Below, piece after piece: positions 4,789 through 62,666 of a stretch of DNA of 64,000 bases. The stretch comes from Patescibacteria group bacterium (GTDB lineage: Bacteria > Patescibacteriota > Microgenomatia > UBA1400 > UBA1449): assembly GCA_050942955.1 (NCBI GenBank), contig JBMNOG010000004.1:4431-68430 (forward strand), written 5' to 3'. The translations under genes were made by a program, and so were the position numbers. The notes under the pieces were generated by a model. It was given only the letters and a program-made list of their open reading frames with translations, was not told where the DNA came from and ran no database searches. Every line of letters starts with the position of its first letter. Position 1 is the first letter of the stretch.

Positions 4789-5667
4789 ATGAACAAACAA
4801 ACAAGAGTCGGATTTATTGGCCTAGGGCTTATGGGCAACCCGATGGCAAAAAACCTTAAAAAGGCCGGTTTTGACCTGAAAGTTTACAACCGTTCTAAGG
4901 AGAAACTCGAGGAATTTATTGAGATGGGAGTGCCGGTATACAATAGTCCGGCAGAACTGGCAAAAGACTGTGATGTGGTTATAAGTATCGTTACCGGGCC
5001 TGAAGACGTTAGGGAAGTTATGGTTGGGCCTGAAGGAGTGATTGTCAGCGGCAATTCTACTCTCACTGCAATAGATATGAGTACTATCGGTCCTTCTGCA
5101 GCAACTGAAGTTGGTGAAGTACTAGCAGAAGCTGGGATAGAGTTTTTAGATGCGCCAGTTACCGGCAGTGTTGCCAAAGCCACTACAGGAGAACTGACAA
5201 TCTTTATTGGCGGCAAAGAAGATGTTTTTGAGAACGCTAAACCGATATTTAAGGCCATGGGAACAAACTTGCAGTATATGGGGAAAAGCGGCAGCGGCCA
5301 AGCTATTAAACTCATCAACAACCTTATTGTTGCCTCAACTATAACTACCCTGGCTGAAGGCTTTTTGCTGGCTGACATGATGCAACTCCCAAGAGAAAAA
5401 GTTGCACAGGCGCTGGAAGACGTGCCCGCTTTATCGTTTTTCATGAAACTTAAACTGCCAAACATGGTTAACAATGACTTTCCTGTAGCCTTTTCGATGG
5501 CCAATATGGACAAGGATTTACGCCTAGCTTTATCCGAGATGCAAAACGCAGACGGCAATCTCGAAGTGCTTAAGAAAGTTGAGCAATATTACAGTGAGGG
5601 GTTGGAAAAAGGGCTGGGAAGCAAAGACATCTCGGCAGTTCTGAAAGTTCTTCAGGAAAAAGGATAG
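4789..5667 (+). CDS. NAD(P)-dependent oxidoreductase, 3-hydroxyisobutyrate dehydrogenase / 2-hydroxy-3-oxopropionate reductase family
   Basis: RVGFIGLGLMGNPMAKNL is the Rossmann GxGxxG motif. The 6-PGDH-like NAD-binding domain and C-terminal helical domain are typical. Start at MNKQTRVGFIG. Confidence 0.8.
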   Translation: MNKQTRVGFIGLGLMGNPMAKNLKKAGFDLKVYNRSKEKLEEFIEMGVPVYNSPAELAKDCDVVISIVTGPEDVREVMVGPEGVIVSGNSTLTAIDMSTIGPSAATEVGEVLAEAGIEFLDAPVTGSVAKATTGELTIFIGGKEDVFENAKPIFKAMGTNLQYMGKSGSGQAIKLINNLIVASTITTLAEGFLLADMMQLPREKVAQALEDVPALSFFMKLKLPNMVNNDFPVAFSMANMDKDLRLALSEMQNADGNLEVLKKVEQYYSEGLEKGLGSKDISAVLKVLQEKG

Positions 5668-6018
5668 TAAATCTAAGAGTGTCTCTGGCAATAACAGGTC
5701 TAACTTCAAGTAAAGTCTGTGGTTAAAGTACGCTGTTTCGAGTTGTTTTCCTCAAAACGTAATTGAAATGAATATTGTGAAGTTTTCGAACTAACACCTG
5801 AGAACGAGATGAAATTTATGCTTGTTTATGCTATAATTATAGGATATACAGCTAGAGGTAGCTGTTTTTGTTTCCGCATGAAACTAACTATAAGCAGTTA
5901 TGTTTTCTTCTGGAAGCGCACCTTAACAAGCAGCAGTAGGTTTGTTTTTCCTGCCGCTTTAGGTTTGTAAAACACTATAAGCTTAAAGTGGCAGGAAAAC
6001 TTTTCTTTGGAGGAAATC

Positions 6019-6459
6019 ATGAGCAAGATCGGAGAGTCGTTCGTTCAAGGGAAGGAGAAGGTCACAGAGGCATCAAGGAAAGGCTGGTCACTACTCAGTA
6101 CAGTGATTACAATACTTTTCTTGTTGGCCCTTGTCGACAGGTTTAACCTAGTGATCAAACTAGGCTCGAACTTGTTCGACACAACGGAGTCAGTCATCAC
6201 CGCAGGAGCAGCTGCGCCGACACAGTTCTCGAACATGGCAGTTCCGCCTCAACCACAGATGGTTTCAACCAGCCAGCACATTCTGTGCCAGGCTGAGCTG
6301 TACACCATCCAGAAAGGTGATACAGCCTGGGGGATAGCCCAGAAATTCGGCGTGCCGTTGCCACTCCTTTTGGGAGCCAACGAGATGTCTGTAGAACAGG
6401 CATCTCAACTTTCGATCGGCCAGCAGCTCCGAATCCCAGTTTTTCCGCTGGGTCAGTAG
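6019..6459 (+). CDS. membrane-anchored LysM-domain protein
   Basis: GGAGGA SD 5 nt upstream of the ATG at 6019. TM helix LLSTVITILFLLALV. C-terminal LysM domain: YTIQKGDTAWGIAQKFGVPLPLLLGANEMSVEQASQLSIGQQLRIP. Confidence 0.7.
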   Translation: MSKIGESFVQGKEKVTEASRKGWSLLSTVITILFLLALVDRFNLVIKLGSNLFDTTESVITAGAAAPTQFSNMAVPPQPQMVSTSQHILCQAELYTIQKGDTAWGIAQKFGVPLPLLLGANEMSVEQASQLSIGQQLRIPVFPLGQ

Positions 6460-54671: not shown

Positions 54672-57591
54672 CTACAATACGTCTTTCAAAAACTTCCCTG
54701 TCCAGGAGTGTCCTGCTTTGGCAATATCTTCAGGCGTGCCCTCAGCAATAATTTCTCCACCCTCATCTCCACCTTCTGGTCCCATATCAATGATCCAGTC
54801 GGCATTTTTAACAAGATCCAGATTATGCTCAATAACAATAATGGTATTACCCTTTTCAACCAGTTTTTTAAGGACAATTAAAAGTTTTTCGAGATCAGCA
54901 AAGTGGAGTCCGGTTGTGGGCTCGTCAAGCAAATAGACTGTCTGGGTACTGCTGGTTTTAGACAGTTCTGCCGCTAGTTTAATACGCTGGGCTTCTCCTC
55001 CGGAGAGAGTTGGTGCCGGCTGGCCGAGCTTGATGTACCCCAAGCCTACATCGTAAAGTGTCTGAAGTTTGCCATGAATAGCGCTGTGGTTTTTGAAAAA
55101 CTCTAGAGCTTCCTCAACCGTCATTCCCAAAACGTCAGCAATATTCTTACCCTTGTAATGAACCTGAAGAGTTTCGTAGTTGTAGCGAAGACCTCCACAG
55201 ACCTCACAGTCGACATAAACGTCAGGTAAAAACTGCATCTCAATTTTTATCTGCCCTTCTCCCTGGCACGCTTCACATCTACCACCCCTGACGTTAAACG
55301 AGAACCTGCCTGGCTTATAGCCACGCATTTTCGCTTCTGCAGTTTGGGAGAACAAAAACCTGATGTGGTCAAACGCTTTGGTATAGGTAGCCGGATTCGA
55401 GCGGGGAGTTCGGCCAATGGGTGATTGGTCGATTAGAGCTACTCGTTTAACATTTTCAATACCCTTCAAATCTTTGTAGTTGCCACCTACCTCTTTATGC
55501 CTGAAGTTAAGCTGAGAAGCCAAAGCATGGTAGAGAGTATCGTCAATGAGAGTGGATTTGCCTGAGCCCGAAACTCCGGTAATAACAATGAATTTGTTAA
55601 GAGGAAACTTGACTGAGATATTCTTGAGGTTATTTTCTTTGCAACCCACAATTTCCAAGGCATTGTCTACTTCCCCGTTTTTATGACCGGTAACTCTGAT
55701 CTTCTTCTCCCCAGAAAGGTACTTGCCAGTCAAAGAATTAGTGTTTTTTGAAACTTCCTCAGGAGTACCAAAGGCAACTACTTTTCCTCCAGCCTCTCCG
55801 GCCAGAGGCCCAAAGTCAATAAGCCAATCAGCTTCTTTCATTGTCTCCATGTCATGCTCAACAACTATAACAGTGTTGCCAAGTTCCCGCAGATGCTTGA
55901 GAGTTTCAATAAGCTTCTTGTTATCTCTTTGGTGGAGTCCGATGGAGGGTTCATCCAATACATATAAAACCCCCGACAGACCGGAACCAATCTGGGAAGC
56001 TAACCGAATTCTCTGAGCTTCACCGCCAGCTAACGTTCCGGCTGAACGGGCTAAGTTAAGGTAATCCAAACCGACTGACACCAAAAAACCTAGCCTTGAT
56101 TCAAGTTCTTTCAGAATAGGTGCGGCAATCACAGTTTCTTTCTGGGATAAAACCGGAGACTTCAAGCTCTTGACCCAAGCTAAACTTTCTTTGATCGGCA
56201 TCTCAGCCACTTCCACGATACTCTTTTTGTCAATAACCACTGCTAAAGCTTCAGGCTTTAGCCTTGAGCCCAAACAGTCCGGACAGGTTTCTTTGCGCAT
56301 AAAGCGCTCAATCTCGCTACGCATAAAATCTGACTTAGTTTCTCTGTGCCTTCTCTCGAGGTTGGGGATCACTCCTTCAAACCTATAGTCCACAGTGTAG
56401 TGCCTGCCCTGGGCATTCGTTCCCGAAACTTCATAGAGCTCGTTGCCTGTACCATACATAATGAGGTTTAGGTCTTCTTCTTTCATTTCTCCAATTGGAG
56501 TTCTTAGAGAAAACCCTTTTTTCTTAGCAACCGCCGACATGATGTTGAAAAACCAGGAACTATTCTCGACAGCCCTATTGAAGGGTAAAATACCCCCTTC
56601 AGTAATACTGAGCTTAGGGTTAATAACAAGGTTTTTGTCAATTTTAAGAAGTGTACCGATACCACTGCAAGTTTCACAAGCTCCGTGAGGGGTATTGAAA
56701 GAAAATATTCTCGGCTCAATCTCAGGAAGAGTTAAGTTACAGTTAGGACAGGCAAACCTCTCGGAAAAGAGGTGGTCTTCAAACTTCTTGGGTTTGTCAG
56801 GAAAGCTAAAACTCTCATCACCAATAAAACTAGCAACAGTGAGCCCATCCGAAAGTTTTAAGGCAGTTTCCAGTGATTCAACCAAGCGGGTTCTCAATTC
56901 CTGAGGATTTTTGAGTTCATCAGGGGCAATCATAACCCGGTCAACCACAGCTTCAATAGTGTGCTTATTATTCTTCAAGAGGCTTATATCCTCATCCAAA
57001 TTAATCACATGACCATCTATCCTCACCCGCTGGTAGCCTTTTTGTTTAAGCGAGTCCAGTAAACTCTGGAACTCGCCTTTTCTACCTCTTACCACCGGGG
57101 AAAGGATCATGAGTCTTATCCTCGCTTTTTTAACCAGCGGATCAGCTGCCTTTTGTTTAGCCAGCTCAAGGACTTGATTATAGATCTGATCTACCGACTG
57201 TTGGGCAATCTCAATGCCGCAGTTAGGACAATGAGGGTGGCCGATTCGGGCAAATAGAAGCCGTAAGTAGTCATAAATTTCCGTAATAGTTCCAACTGTT
57301 GATCTGGGATTGTGGGAAACGGTTTTCTGGTCAATGGAAATAGCGGGCGAAAGACCTTCAATAAGTTCCACATCCGGCTTCTTCATTACGCCCAAAAATT
57401 GCCTGGCATATGAAGACAAACTTTCTACATACCGTCTCTGACCCTCAGCATAGAGCGTATCAAAGGCAAACGAGCTTTTGCCGCTTCCTGAAAGTCCGGT
57501 TAAAACCACCAGTTTGTTCTTAGGGATTGTTACATCAATACCTTTTAGATTATGTTCTTTTGCACCCTTAACTGTAATTTGGTCTTGTGCC
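54672..57591 (-). CDS. uvrA: excinuclease ABC subunit A
   Basis: Two ABC ATPase modules (GLSGSGKSS, GVSGSGKST) and zinc-finger Cys clusters. AAGGAG SD upstream of MAQDQITVKG (the track ORF starts earlier at an alternative codon). Confidence 0.95.
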
Positions 57592-57839
57592 ATAAGTCTC
57601 CTTTTGTGATTCGAGCCACATATTGTAGCTGAAATATAAGGAAAATGGAAGCGTATTAAACAGGAAAAAGACTTGGGCAACCAAGAAGTAAGTACAGCAA
57701 ATAATAATTTTAAAAAACAGTGCGAATACTGCAAGATTATTTTTGGTTCTTACTGTGGTTGCTGCTATCCTGTTTGGAAGGCAGGGTGGCCTGTCAAAGC
57801 ATGCCAGGCCACCCCCCGGCACTAGAAGAGAGATTGCTG

Positions 57840-58271: not shown

Positions 58272-58679
58272 CTAAGCTACCGAGAAACCCAAACCGGATG
58301 CTTCTTTGAGGTAGCTATCAATTCGACACTTGACCTGTCCAGACATGAGTGATAACGAGGACACCGTGTCGCCATAGTACACAAGAGCTGCCGCAACAAC
58401 CATACTCGGGGTTTCTGGATCAACGACCCGGAGGAGAAATGCCCCACCTCGCTGGACAGAGTTGACAAAATGAAACCTTAGAGCCGGATCAAGCCCGTTT
58501 TGGTTTGCGGCAATGATGCCATTTGCCTCAAGCTCGATTCTCAGACCCGTACGATCGGTCTTGTAGACAACAGTGCACCTGTCCCCAGGCTTTGCCAGAA
58601 GAGCGAAAAGGTCAATATTTTTGCTATTTTTGACAATAACCGGTACGGCACGCCCACATGCATGGACCTCAAAGCTCAT
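58272..58679 (-). CDS. hypothetical protein (135 aa) in GC-rich insert
   Basis: Clean ORF, GC ~50%. No motif recognised. Confidence 0.45.
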   Translation of the reverse strand: MSFEVHACGRAVPVIVKNSKNIDLFALLAKPGDRCTVVYKTDRTGLRIELEANGIIAANQNGLDPALRFHFVNSVQRGGAFLLRVVDPETPSMVVAAALVYYGDTVSSLSLMSGQVKCRIDSYLKEASGLGFSVA

Positions 58680-58715
58680 GATGCTCCTTTAAGCTCTAAC
58701 ATGCTTGGACGACTA

Positions 58716-59072
58716 CTAGATTGCGATTTGAGTCGTTGCCACCTCCGTGAGAACGTTGAGAGAAATCCTATTCAGGATTTCAGGCCAGCGGGATGGATAC
58801 TCTTGTCCACCTTCCCTAAGATGATGAACTAAATATTGCGCATCCGTTAGGCTCCCAAGCCAAGCAAGACGTTGATCGCATCTGGTAATGAGTTTTTCAA
58901 TCGCCAGAGGCAAATCCTCCAATGATTGGAGAATGACCGGGGCAATACCCATTTCAGGGTCATGGAGAACTCTCTCTAGCTCCAGAATGGTTTCCGGGCT
59001 GAAGAGGATCTCCTGCAGGAGTTGCCGCATGTTCTCCAAGCCCTCAATCTCGTGTTCCCGGCAGGATAACAT
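58716..59072 (-). CDS. hypothetical protein (118 aa) in GC-rich insert
   Basis: Clean ORF upstream of and co-oriented with 58272..58679. No motif recognised. Confidence 0.45.
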   Translation of the reverse strand: MLSCREHEIEGLENMRQLLQEILFSPETILELERVLHDPEMGIAPVILQSLEDLPLAIEKLITRCDQRLAWLGSLTDAQYLVHHLREGGQEYPSRWPEILNRISLNVLTEVATTQIAI

Positions 59073-59345
59073 TGTCTTTTCTCCTTGCTGGAATTCCGAA
59101 ATGTCAAATGTAGCCTAATTGCTACAAGCAAGTATTATACTCTCCTCAGGCAAACACAAATAGATTAACAGGGGTACCTTCTTTATCCTAAGTTCAAAAG
59201 CTCAAGATTAGATAATCTGAGCATACATAGTAGCAGGAATATAGGAGTAAACTGGACGTCTACTTTGCTATCTTCATCTATATGGTATAATATTAAAAAT
59301 GTGTGTAATAAATACGTATAGAAATTCACTCTTTCTTTAGTATTT

Positions 59346-59639
59346 ATGACAAAAATTGAGAGAAGATTAGGACAGAAATCTTTTGATGCCTATCAGGCAA
59401 ACAAATCCAGGTTGATAGGTATTGCAATGACGGTAGCCGAGTTTGACTCGGCAAATGGTGAGATAATATATGATGACAGCCGCTGGACTGGACAATCGAT
59501 ACTCCAATCGCTAAAAGGTTGCGGGTATGATACCGTTTACCAATTTATGAGGCAATTTATAGATATTTTTGGAATGCCAACCCCAAAAGATGATGGGCGG
59601 CTGGTTTGGAGAGTTAATAAAACTTCAGATTTATTTTAA
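59346..59639 (+). CDS. hypothetical protein (97 aa)
   Basis: ORF with ATG start convergent with uvrB. No motif recognised. Confidence 0.35.
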   Translation: MTKIERRLGQKSFDAYQANKSRLIGIAMTVAEFDSANGEIIYDDSRWTGQSILQSLKGCGYDTVYQFMRQFIDIFGMPTPKDDGRLVWRVNKTSDLF

Positions 59640-61741
59640 TTTTTTCGCTCTTCAAGCTCCCTAATCTTATCCCGTATCCTCGCCGCCCGCTCAAAGTTCA
59701 AGTCCTTGGCCTCAGCCAGCATGGCCCGACGCAACCTCTTTTTAAGCAGCTCTTTATCTTGAGGAGTATAGTCATCAGGGTTAATAGTCTCAAGCACAAT
59801 CTCATCCCCTTTGGGGGTGAGTTTAAGAGAGACTTTTTTGCCATCAGACTCTTCTTTAGGTTCGCGTTTAATAAGTTTTTCCCTGATTTTCTTTTGGATT
59901 GTAGCCGGTTTTATACCATGTTCCTCGTTGTAGGCTAGCTGAACCTCCCGTCTGCGGTTCACTTCAGTTATAGCTTCCTTCATTGACCGAGTTTGAGTGT
60001 CGGCATACATTATTACCCTACCCTCCACATGCCGTGCAGCCCGACCCATTGTTTGGATAAGTGAAGTTTTAGAGCGCAGAAAACCCTCTTTGTCAGCATC
60101 CAAAATAGCTACTAATGTTACTTCAGGTAAGTCCAGGCCCTCTCTCAAAAGGTTAATACCGACAACTACATCATACACTCCGGTACGCAGATCATCTAAA
60201 ATGTCTTGCCTATCCAGAGTTTCAATATCAGAGTGAAGGTACGCCACTTTGGGCATCTCAAAATCGGGACTACCCTGCTTGAAGTTTTCGAAGTTTTTTT
60301 CTTCGTTAAGATAGTCGGTTAACGCTTCTGCTAAACGTTTTGTAAGGGTGGTTACTAAAACCCTTTGGCCTTTAGCTTTTCGCTTCATGATTTCGCGGGT
60401 CAAATCCTCTATCTGGTTATCTGTAGGTCTTACCTCAACTTCTGGATCAACTAAACCAGTTGGCCTTACCAGCTGTTCAACAACCTCAACATGAGGCCGC
60501 GATAGTTCCCAATCGCTAGGAGTAGCAGAGACGAATACGGTCTGATTTACTCTTTGCAAAAACTCATCAAACTGGAGGGGTCGGTTATCAAGAGCCGAGG
60601 GGAGCCTGAATCCGTAGTCAATCAGTGTTTGCTTGCGAGCCCTGTCTCCGTTATACATTCCCCGTATTTGCGGGATAGTCATATGGGATTCATCGATAAC
60701 CAGGAGCCAGTCTTTTTTTTGCATGAAGTAATCAATGAGAGTATACGGAGCTTCTCCGGGTTTGCGACCATCAAAGTAGCGGGAATAGTTTTCAATACCG
60801 TTAACAAACCCGAGCTCTGAAATCATGTCAAGGTCGTAGTTAACCTTCTGCTCAAGCCTGTACGCTTCAATAGTTTTACCGGACGCTTTAAGTTCTTTCA
60901 GTCGTAATTTTAAATCTTTGCGAATGTTTGCAAATGCAGCTTCCTGTTTTGCAGGATCAGTAATGTAGTGTTTGGCAGGAAAAAGAATATACTCTTCAAG
61001 GAGAGAATTTGAAACACTGGCCACTGTGATGTCAGTTATTGGGTCAACAGGCTTAGCTGAAATCGGGTCAAGCCACTGCATTTTCTCCAGAATATTGCCA
61101 AGAAACTGGAGCCTTAGCAGGTTATCCTGATATGCTGGCCAAACCTCAATTATGTCTCCTTTCACTCTGAATGAACCTCTTTTCAGGTCAAAATCACTTC
61201 GCTCATACTGAAGCCTGGTAAGTTGCGAAAGCAAGTCCTGCCGCTTCATCACTTCACCCACTTTTAGAGGGATAACAAAGTGGCTGTACTCTCTTGGGTC
61301 ACCAATGTTGTAGATACAGGAAACTGAAGCAACGATAATGACATCGTTGCGAGTCTGGAGGTTAGTTGTTGCCAAAAGCCTTAACTTGTCAATTTCTTCG
61401 TTTATCTCAGTTTCTTTTTCAATATACGTGTCTGTTGTCGGAATGTAGGCTTCAGGCTGGTAGTAGTCGTAGTAGGAGACAAAGTATGAAACCCCGTTTT
61501 TTGGGAAGAAATCCCTAAACTCTTGGTAAAGTTGGCCGGCCAGAGTTTTGTTGTGAGAGATTACTAGTGTCGGCCGCTGGAGCTTTTCAATCACATTAGC
61601 TACAGTAAACGTCTTACCGCTACCAGTAACTCCCAGAAGCACCTGGTTTTCTTTGCCGGACTCAAGGTTTTTAACAAGTTTCTCAATAGCCTGTGGTTGA
61701 TGACCGGTTGGGCTGTAGTTTGAAGCAATTTTGAATTTCAT
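59636..61741 (-). CDS. uvrB: excinuclease ABC subunit B
   Basis: MKFKIASNYSPTGHQPQAIEKLV...GVTGSGKTFT (helicase motif I), beta-hairpin region, and a C-terminal UvrC-interaction coiled-coil. Confidence 0.95.
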   Translation of the reverse strand: MKFKIASNYSPTGHQPQAIEKLVKNLESGKENQVLLGVTGSGKTFTVANVIEKLQRPTLVISHNKTLAGQLYQEFRDFFPKNGVSYFVSYYDYYQPEAYIPTTDTYIEKETEINEEIDKLRLLATTNLQTRNDVIIVASVSCIYNIGDPREYSHFVIPLKVGEVMKRQDLLSQLTRLQYERSDFDLKRGSFRVKGDIIEVWPAYQDNLLRLQFLGNILEKMQWLDPISAKPVDPITDITVASVSNSLLEEYILFPAKHYITDPAKQEAAFANIRKDLKLRLKELKASGKTIEAYRLEQKVNYDLDMISELGFVNGIENYSRYFDGRKPGEAPYTLIDYFMQKKDWLLVIDESHMTIPQIRGMYNGDRARKQTLIDYGFRLPSALDNRPLQFDEFLQRVNQTVFVSATPSDWELSRPHVEVVEQLVRPTGLVDPEVEVRPTDNQIEDLTREIMKRKAKGQRVLVTTLTKRLAEALTDYLNEEKNFENFKQGSPDFEMPKVAYLHSDIETLDRQDILDDLRTGVYDVVVGINLLREGLDLPEVTLVAILDADKEGFLRSKTSLIQTMGRAARHVEGRVIMYADTQTRSMKEAITEVNRRREVQLAYNEEHGIKPATIQKKIREKLIKREPKEESDGKKVSLKLTPKGDEIVLETINPDDYTPQDKELLKKRLRRAMLAEAKDLNFERAARIRDKIRELEERKN

Positions 61742-62000
61742 AGATTTTGTAGTATACCAAAAATGAGATTCCAAATCATTGCGGATATATTTGAAAAATC
61801 AAAGATTATAGAAACTCAGTATTGGAAATTCTAGCTTTGTACTTACATTTTGCACTTAGTACTGAGCTTTCTGTACCTTTTGCCAAACTGGCACTTGCAG
61901 GTTCGTATATTTTTTGCCAAACTATTACCAAACTCTGCACAACGTTAACTGCCTGCTAAATTTGGTTATAAACATTATCTGCCCTAAAGGTTAGTACCCT

Positions 62001-62666
62001 ATGGCAAATAACGCTCCTGAACACACAGTTACTCTTTACAAACGTCAGAGGCAAATCGTTGAGTTTATTTCCCAGTTTATCCAGAGAAACGGTTACTCAC
62101 CTACGTTGCGCGAAATCGGAGATGCTATGGGGTTATCTTCTTTAGCTACTGTTCATGAGCATGTAGCCAGACTATGTGAAAAAGGAGTGCTTAAAAAAAC
62201 TACAGGCAATAAAACCCGCGGCATCATTGTTGTTGACAGCAAGCTTGGCTCGTTCCAACAAGGTGTTAATTTACCAATACTAGGCTTCTTTTCTGCCGGC
62301 CAGCCGATTGACCCCTACAATAAGCCTGAGGCATATGTACAGGTTTCAGCTGAAATGCTTTCAGGAAGAAAACGGGCTTTTGCCCTTGAAGTTCGAGGCG
62401 ATGCCATGATTGATGAAGGAATCATTGATGGAGATTACATTGTTGTTGAGGAGGAAATTGATATTAATGACGGTGATGTTGTTATCGCCATTCTTGAAAA
62501 CGGCAGCGCTACCTTAAAAAAATTCTACAAAGAAGCTACGCGTGTCAGGCTTGAATGTATTCATAGTAACAATCACCCAATCTATGCAGCTAGAATTCAG
62601 CTTCAGGGCCGCAGCCTTGGAGTAGTCAGGCATTTTGCTACGTTTAAGACTGATTATAAAAGTTAG
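62001..62666 (+). CDS. lexA: LexA-family repressor (S24 peptidase fold) with the catalytic Ser replaced by Ala
   Basis: N-terminal wHTH (YSPTLREIGDAMGLSSLATVHEHVARLCEKGVL). Ala-Gly cleavage site in ILGFFSAGQP. Catalytic block LEVRGDAMIDEGIIDGDYIVV (B. subtilis LEIMGDSMIDAGILDKDYVIV). Lys in ATLKKFYKE. Divergent from uvrB. Confidence 0.85.
   Translation: MANNAPEHTVTLYKRQRQIVEFISQFIQRNGYSPTLREIGDAMGLSSLATVHEHVARLCEKGVLKKTTGNKTRGIIVVDSKLGSFQQGVNLPILGFFSAGQPIDPYNKPEAYVQVSAEMLSGRKRAFALEVRGDAMIDEGIIDGDYIVVEEEIDINDGDVVIAILENGSATLKKFYKEATRVRLECIHSNNHPIYAARIQLQGRSLGVVRHFATFKTDYKS

Follow-up and report, generated by a model that had tools for sequence, protein, structure and literature searches.

We propose, with a probability of about three in four, that the lexA gene of the window (the whole stretch of 64,000 nucleotides analysed here, 64 kb) encodes the ordinary LexA, turned pseudo-protease, of a tiny uncultured bacterium of the Candidatus Beckwithbacteria group (Patescibacteria, Microgenomates): a repressor that would no longer cleave itself and would still regulate its own gene, in a clade where self-cleavage is relaxed. 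What defines the SOS response of bacteria is a switch, the self-cleavage of LexA. In this clade of reduced-genome, probably symbiotic bacteria that switch appears to have been dismantled, with the repressor, its predicted operator and its linkage to the excision-repair genes kept. The gene, its domains and the residues that matter for catalysis are the following.

62001–62666, plus strand: lexA coding sequence, 221 aa, GenBank MGI5827827.1, the single positional ortholog of LexA
62034–62207, plus strand: LexA_DNA_bind (PF01726) winged-helix domain, residues 12–69, Pfam E = 8e-18
62274–62612, plus strand: Peptidase_S24 (PF00717) fold domain, residues 92–204, Pfam E = 1e-22
62295–62300, plus strand: Ala99-Gly100 at the E. 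coli scissile-bond position, codons GCC GGC read directly, retained
62403–62405, plus strand: codon GCC at the nucleophile position, Ala135, read directly
62517–62519, plus strand: Lys173 at the general-base position (E. coli Lys156), codon AAA read directly, retained

MGI5827827.1 is the exact protein of the window and is annotated 'MAG: transcriptional repressor LexA [Patescibacteria group bacterium]'. The TIGR00498 lexA model, an NCBIfam equivalog, matches it over its full length with 167.7 bits against a cut-off of 110.95. The preliminary description, made from the DNA letters, had read a full-length LexA with a winged helix-turn-helix, an Ala-Gly bond and a conserved Lys, and this reading was borne out by Pfam, TIGR00498 and the structure-sequence alignments. 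In the AlphaFold model the N-terminal domain forms three helices followed by a two-strand wing, and the S24 domain has a pLDDT mostly above 90; the best structural matches of the modelled C-terminal domain are all LexA, with TM scores of 0.70–0.78 against LexA C-terminal domains.

The catalytic site was aligned by HMMER to solved LexA structures (T. maritima, P. aeruginosa and E. coli) and by BLASTP to E. coli LexA. Both methods run without gaps through the catalytic block, where VRGDAMID stands opposite VSGMSMKD, and all of four independent alignments agree in placing Ala135 at the position of E. coli Ser119, as had been claimed before. By HMMER and BLASTP, Ala99-Gly100 corresponds to Ala84-Gly85 and Lys173 to Lys156; the residue before Ala99 is Ser, which gives SAG in the window protein instead of AAG. 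The Ser-Lys dyad is thus incomplete, with Ser replaced by Ala and Lys kept. The nucleophile column holds Ser in 77 of the 80 loci from GTDB species representatives, so Ala135 is a true outlier. By every criterion of sequence and fold other than the nucleophile the protein is LexA and, judged by that residue, does not count as an active S24 peptidase. The residues of the RecA-F203 pocket were considered as a diagnostic and set aside as non-discriminating: they are hydrophobic in the window LexA, but they are core residues.

Replacement of the nucleophile by Ala is found in the structures of standard uncleavable forms of the protein: LexA S119A (1JHH), LexA S125A (8S7G) and LexA S160A (6A2S). 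The first of these, the engineered non-cleavable LexA, carries the same residue change as the window protein, where, unlike in the laboratory protein, the Ala is natural and fixed. The likeness to S119A drawn in the preliminary description therefore stands as to the residue; its equation of S119A with the classical lexA(Ind-) mutation does not, the classical lexA3(Ind-) allele being G85D. By analogy with the behaviour of Ser-to-Ala mutants in other LexAs, the window protein would be unable to cleave itself by the S24 mechanism, whether stimulated by RecA* or spontaneously, and the earlier prediction that RecA-stimulated autocleavage is lost gains support from this analogy.

A single base change would restore Ser at Ala135: the closest Ser-bearing ortholog has TCC where the window has GCC, and the preliminary description had accordingly offered a sequencing or assembly error as one of three options. 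The possibility that Ala135 is an artefact of sequencing, assembly or binning, the true codon being TCC, has a probability that we regard as practically nil. In Logan assemblies of two further runs, a contig from SRR31066179 agrees with the window without mismatch over 3234 bp, and one from ERR10905741, which comes from a slightly different population, shows 3 mismatches in 2543 bp, all of them in flanking sequence and none in lexA. Both encode the identical 221-aa LexA and, because these runs were assembled independently, an error is excluded for practical purposes. In addition, Gly, His, Thr, Asn, Phe, Leu and Ala are found at the nucleophile position in many independent assemblies of orthologs.

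Two excision-repair genes lie next to or near lexA, as had also been described.

59636–61741, minus strand: uvrB, ATG at 61741, 701 aa, divergent from lexA, an arrangement conserved across Microgenomates
54672–57734, minus strand: uvrA, near the uvrB-lexA pair

The mechanically called uvrB reading frame starts at a TTG at 61774; the ATG at 61741 gives 701 aa, which fits the 694–701 aa of the relatives, and this start sets the lexA-uvrB intergenic region at 61742–62000. On the 3' side of lexA follow genes for an rsmI-like methylase, a BadF/BcrAD ATPase, an S26 signal peptidase, ParB, L27, SpoU, L21, FtsW and IleRS. The closest Ser-bearing homolog (P0002; 74% identity; GESM at the nucleophile), from another species of Candidatus Beckwithbacteria, has the same gene order. 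The complete order from the divergent uvrB through lexA to IleRS is common to the window, to a Ser-bearing locus (L003) and to loci with Gly (L005) and His (L018) at the nucleophile position. It is kept as far as the contigs extend in loci with Phe (L008), Thr (L085 and L086) and His (L087), and the downstream lexA-rsmI pair is kept in another locus with Thr (L088). The divergent layout of uvrA-uvrB and lexA is conserved widely across Microgenomates.

The second option of the preliminary description was a cleavage-dead paralog: the window LexA would be surplus, with the SOS response run by a canonical, cleavable LexA encoded at another site of the genome. LexA paralogs occur in other bacteria, and the genome sequence examined amounts to about 76 kb; even so, we consider this very unlikely. 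The window gene occupies the conserved lexA slot, common to the Ser-bearing ortholog of a related species, and the operator motif described below is kept in its own promoter. The second lexA that one would then expect was found neither in the 64-kb window, nor in the downstream 10 kb, nor within 10 kb at any of 88 loci, and the 80 GTDB lexA loci belong to 80 different genomes, none of which contributes two, including the three with a non-Ser LexA. As far as the reachable sequence goes, the gene would be the organism's LexA rather than a spare copy. With error excluded and a paralog unlikely, the option left standing is the third, regulation without LexA self-cleavage.

The Thr-bearing relative L085 has a tandem pair of S26 signal-peptidase genes (4878–6046) downstream of lexA-rsmI, against a single such gene in the window, and a weak S24 match is also seen for one of the pair. 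Many of the GTDB records used here (L008, L012–L015, L017–L020, L061, L065 and others) carry the title 'uncultured Pseudomonadales bacterium', 'Methylococcaceae bacterium' or 'Nevskiaceae bacterium'; these titles appear to be mistaken, since both the LexA and the gene order in the records are of the usual Microgenomates type.

The loss of the nucleophile extends well beyond the window. Among the 120 best database matches to the window LexA, most read G-[DES]-S-M at the nucleophile, A-A-G at the cleavage site and L-K-[KR]-F at the Lys. Sixteen of the closest matches, the window protein included, form a set that we call eroded. At the nucleophile position they have A, H, T, G, N, F or L, or have kept S; D or S frequently replaces the Gly that lies two residues earlier, and L frequently replaces the Met that follows. 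The AAG of the cleavage site has become SAG, STG, YAG, ISG, TNG, KNN, MNN, KNG, RAG or VPG, and the catalytic Lys remains in 14 of the sixteen, the other two having Arg. The sixteen, a set of Beckwithbacteria LexAs, group together in 86% of neighbor-joining bootstraps, a value that could be inflated by long-branch attraction among fast-evolving C-terminal domains, and the clade that unites them with their canonical sister group is recovered in 100%. The comparison with orthologs proposed earlier to decide whether Ala is lineage-wide thus found a clade-wide loss of the nucleophile, with many different residues in place of Ser.

The two domains of the eroded proteins differ in their divergence, as given here by identities and by the ratio of C-terminal to N-terminal divergence.

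Eroded clade: N-terminal identity 0.80, C-terminal identity 0.55, divergence ratio C/N 2.32
Close canonical group: N-terminal identity 0.82, C-terminal identity 0.84, divergence ratio C/N 0.85
Other canonical LexAs: N-terminal identity 0.73, C-terminal identity 0.76, divergence ratio C/N 0.89

The DNA-binding domain of the window LexA is 83–92% identical to that of most clade members and 70–71% identical to that of the two most divergent ones, L008 and L018. Comparisons between the same genomes and the window gave 69–75% for UvrB, 57–73% for L27 and about 62% for IleRS. For a transcription factor, an identity of 83–92% in this domain across L003, L005 and L085–L088 is unusually high.

That lexA is simply decaying, a pseudogene in progress without remaining function, would agree with the eroded catalytic residues and the faster evolution of the C-terminal domain. 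We regard it as extremely improbable, because the reading frame is intact and full-length in at least 16 lineages, neither UvrB nor ribosomal protein L27 is as well conserved as the DNA-binding domain, many positions of the C-terminal domain are invariant, the operator motif is conserved and the fold is predicted with high confidence. The pattern is that expected where self-cleavage is under relaxed constraint and DNA binding under strong constraint, and gene decay does not fit it. Not all members of the clade need be inactive, because some keep Ser (DDSM, DNSL) or have Thr. The retention of Ala-Gly and Lys173 in the window LexA, and of Lys in 14 of the 16 proteins, would be unexpected if the entire catalytic apparatus were unconstrained.

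The intergenic region between lexA and uvrB holds the elements of a predicted operator and promoter.

61902–61934, no strand assigned: predicted composite LexA operator, TTCG-N7-TTTGCCAAACT-N4-CCAAACT, from the position weight matrix (PWM) and alignment with relatives
61893–61898, plus strand: putative -35 hexamer TTGCAG, a poor match (TTGAC in relatives), from alignment with relatives only
61865–61889, plus strand: upstream partial duplicate of the operator/promoter core, 76% identical, holding the first copy of the 12-mer

The 12-nt direct repeat flagged in the preliminary description is present as TTTTGCCAAACT at 61878–61889 and 61912–61923, 34 nt from start to start; 11 nt beyond the second copy comes a third, incomplete one, ACCAAACT. 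A pattern search of the same region agreed with the earlier reading that no CTGT-N8-ACAG or GAAC-N4-GTTC box is present, and found no exact GTTC-N7-GTTC and no cyanobacterial-type box there either.

The motif discovery that had been suggested for recA, uvrA, uvrB and lexA orthologs was carried out on lexA upstream regions (n = 82), by a de novo Gibbs search, with 61 sites kept for the PWM. It returned a direct repeat with an 11-bp period, A-TTCGG-N6-TTYGG (of the TTCG-N7-TTYG type), which in most of the 82 regions has a TTGAC -35 hexamer on one side and the -10 region on the other. At a threshold of at least 16 bits the PWM has 63 matches within 260 bp upstream of lexA (81 loci) against 20 in the remaining ~1.37 Mb, an enrichment that is partly circular, the matrix having been trained on lexA promoters. 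The scarcity of the motif elsewhere shows that it is not a general promoter element but specific to lexA promoters.

The top PWM match in the 64-kb window is AGTTTGGTAATAGTTTGGCAAAAA (AGTTTGG-N4-AGTTTGG) at 61911–61934 on the minus strand, 67–90 bp upstream of lexA. It scores 17.5 bits, a value reached somewhere in only 6% of shuffled windows, and it is the reverse complement of the second and third copies of the 12-mer. The repeat unit is the reverse complement of a LexA half-site, and these two copies, 11 bp apart, form the best match to the box. On the plus strand, a TTCG-N7-TTTG match of moderate score (12–13 bits) at 61900–61923 adjoins the minus-strand box. The composite TTGAC-N3-4-TTCG-N7-TTTGCCAAACT-N4-CCAAA is conserved upstream of lexA in Ser-bearing, Thr and His relatives. 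The predicted operator overlaps the putative -10 region of the lexA promoter; a consensus sigma-70 scan gave nothing useful for this promoter and, as it did not pick up the -35, the promoter was placed solely by alignment with relatives.

No other strong box was found within the 64 kb than the one at lexA/uvrB. Weaker matches of 10–13 bits in the window, including those upstream of uvrA, were rejected as further LexA boxes, since their number, 8 where 6.5 are expected, is about what chance would give. The first copy of the 12-mer was considered as a second operator and likewise rejected: its full-box score is 1.5 bits, that of an orphan half-site in a partial duplication. In the interval 61865–61923 the lexA promoter/operator core is partially duplicated in tandem (34 bp), with 25-nt units 76% identical. 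With a conserved predicted operator in the promoter of lexA itself, the window LexA would most likely autoregulate. The preliminary reading would accordingly be refined in two respects: the loss of the nucleophile appears clade-wide rather than a single mutation, and the repeat appears to be part of the predicted LexA operator, which in Patescibacteria has direct-repeat and not palindromic form.

The mechanism that we propose for the non-cleaving repressor is as follows. Selection for self-cleavage would have been relaxed in the clade, whose members lost the nucleophile, its flanking Gly or Met, or the Ala-Ala-Gly site, and all of which would retain the DNA-binding domain, an intact S24 fold and an operator in their own promoter. 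A dimeric repressor, its S24 domain now probably only a dimerisation module, is predicted to bind the direct-repeat box of 11-bp period (TTCG-N7-TTYG type) overlapping the lexA promoter. We infer that it continues to bind DNA, with the regulatory consequence of steady negative autoregulation of lexA and perhaps control of the divergent uvrB. Because the nucleophile is Ala, there would be no removal of LexA by its own Ser-Lys dyad when RecA filaments form. DNA damage sensed by RecA probably cannot switch the window LexA off in the usual way, and its target genes would be expressed constantly or released by another signal. The Walker-A signature of RecA was searched for in the 64-kb window and the fetched loci and was found in neither.

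Damage-inducible control could also have been retained, if the window LexA were still cleaved in a non-canonical manner, through another nucleophile such as Ser169 or by a separate protease, or were countered by a protein anti-repressor. The S24 domain is, by prediction, intact and well folded rather than lost, and Ala-Gly and Lys173 (the latter in most of the clade) are still in place. Position 169 (62505–62507; the position of E. coli Glu152), four residues before Lys173, holds Ser in five members of the eroded clade, whereas canonical relatives have Leu, Met or Phe there. Ser169 is nevertheless not conserved across the clade, and no alternative Ser, Thr or Cys with clade-wide conservation was found beside Lys173. 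The cleavage site is destroyed in many members (KNN, MNN, TNG, VPG), the oxyanion-hole context G-x-S-M is eroded as well, and the genes conserved beside lexA are housekeeping genes, with no candidate partner gene among them. We consider such retained inducibility unlikely.

A broader idea is that an entire lineage within Beckwithbacteria uncoupled LexA from RecA-triggered self-cleavage, retaining it beside uvrAB as a DNA-binding regulator under tight conservation, and that control passed to a new input: a partner protein or a trans-acting protease that works on the fast-evolving S24 domain, for example, or a nucleophile moved elsewhere, as to Ser169. This we put forward tentatively and hold to be doubtful; if true, it would mean that symbiotic bacteria with reduced genomes have a new means of switching an SOS-type repressor.

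Compared with canonical LexA (TIGR00498; E. coli; T. maritima 3K2Z), the window protein has the same two-domain architecture and fold, aligns from end to end, keeps Ala-Gly and Lys, adjoins nucleotide-excision-repair genes and has a predicted operator in its own promoter. It differs in the clade-wide erosion of the determinants of self-cleavage and in its predicted operator, which is a direct repeat and not CTGT-N8-ACAG or GAAC-N4-GTTC. The LexA box of Alphaproteobacteria and Acidobacteria is GTTC-N7-GTTC (see references 51–53 of PMC7739468). The predicted operator resembles it in its direct-repeat geometry, 11-bp period and TTC core, and several Microgenomates sites read exactly GTTC-N7-GTTC; on the other hand, the consensus here is TTCGG-N6-TTYGG and, in the eroded clade, a second, inverted pair (CCAAA-N6-CCAAA) abuts it. 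For Patescibacteria, a LexA motif that is a direct repeat has been reported (Sanchez-Osuna, Barbe and Erill 2017, Environ Microbiol 19:3465, as cited in PMC7739468). The motif described here is likewise a direct repeat in lexA promoters of the same superphylum, with an 11-bp period.

A natural cleavage-dead LexA has a clear precedent in Synechocystis sp. PCC 6803, in which Ala-Gly has become Gly-Gly and Ser119 has become Asp; that protein is considered non-cleavable and not an SOS regulator (PMC3091678, PMC1524924). The window LexA is likewise a natural ortholog without the nucleophile, kept as a DNA-binding regulator, here a predicted one. The two belong to unrelated phyla, so the loss was independent. 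Unlike the Synechocystis protein, the window LexA has lost only the Ser, with Ala-Gly retained (as SAG) and Lys kept, and its gene is still linked to uvrAB; in several relatives within the clade the Ala-Gly site is lost too (STG, ISG, TNG, KNN, MNN, KNG, VPG). In the literature searched, no description of a cleavage-dead LexA in Patescibacteria was found. The case is one of independent loss that extends over a clade and leaves the linkage to repair genes in place. LexA would then be able to persist as a plain autoregulated repressor, with this clade as a second independent natural example beside Synechocystis. The proteins also offer an evolutionary series (Ser, Ala, Gly, His, Thr, Asn, Phe and Leu, with intact or destroyed sites) for the role of an S24 domain without cutting. 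Annotation pipelines call the eroded proteins 'transcriptional repressor LexA', a name that would mislead by suggesting that the SOS response is inducible.

In the window as a whole, three tRNAs were all that Rfam and tRNA scans detected. Most other Microgenomates have uvrA directly beside uvrB; in the window, three small hypothetical ORFs (135 aa, minus strand; 118 aa, minus strand; 97 aa, plus strand) lie between them at 58272–59639, none of them matched by Pfam or PADLOC. L086 has a comparable set of three (157, 118 and 95 aa) in the corresponding position.
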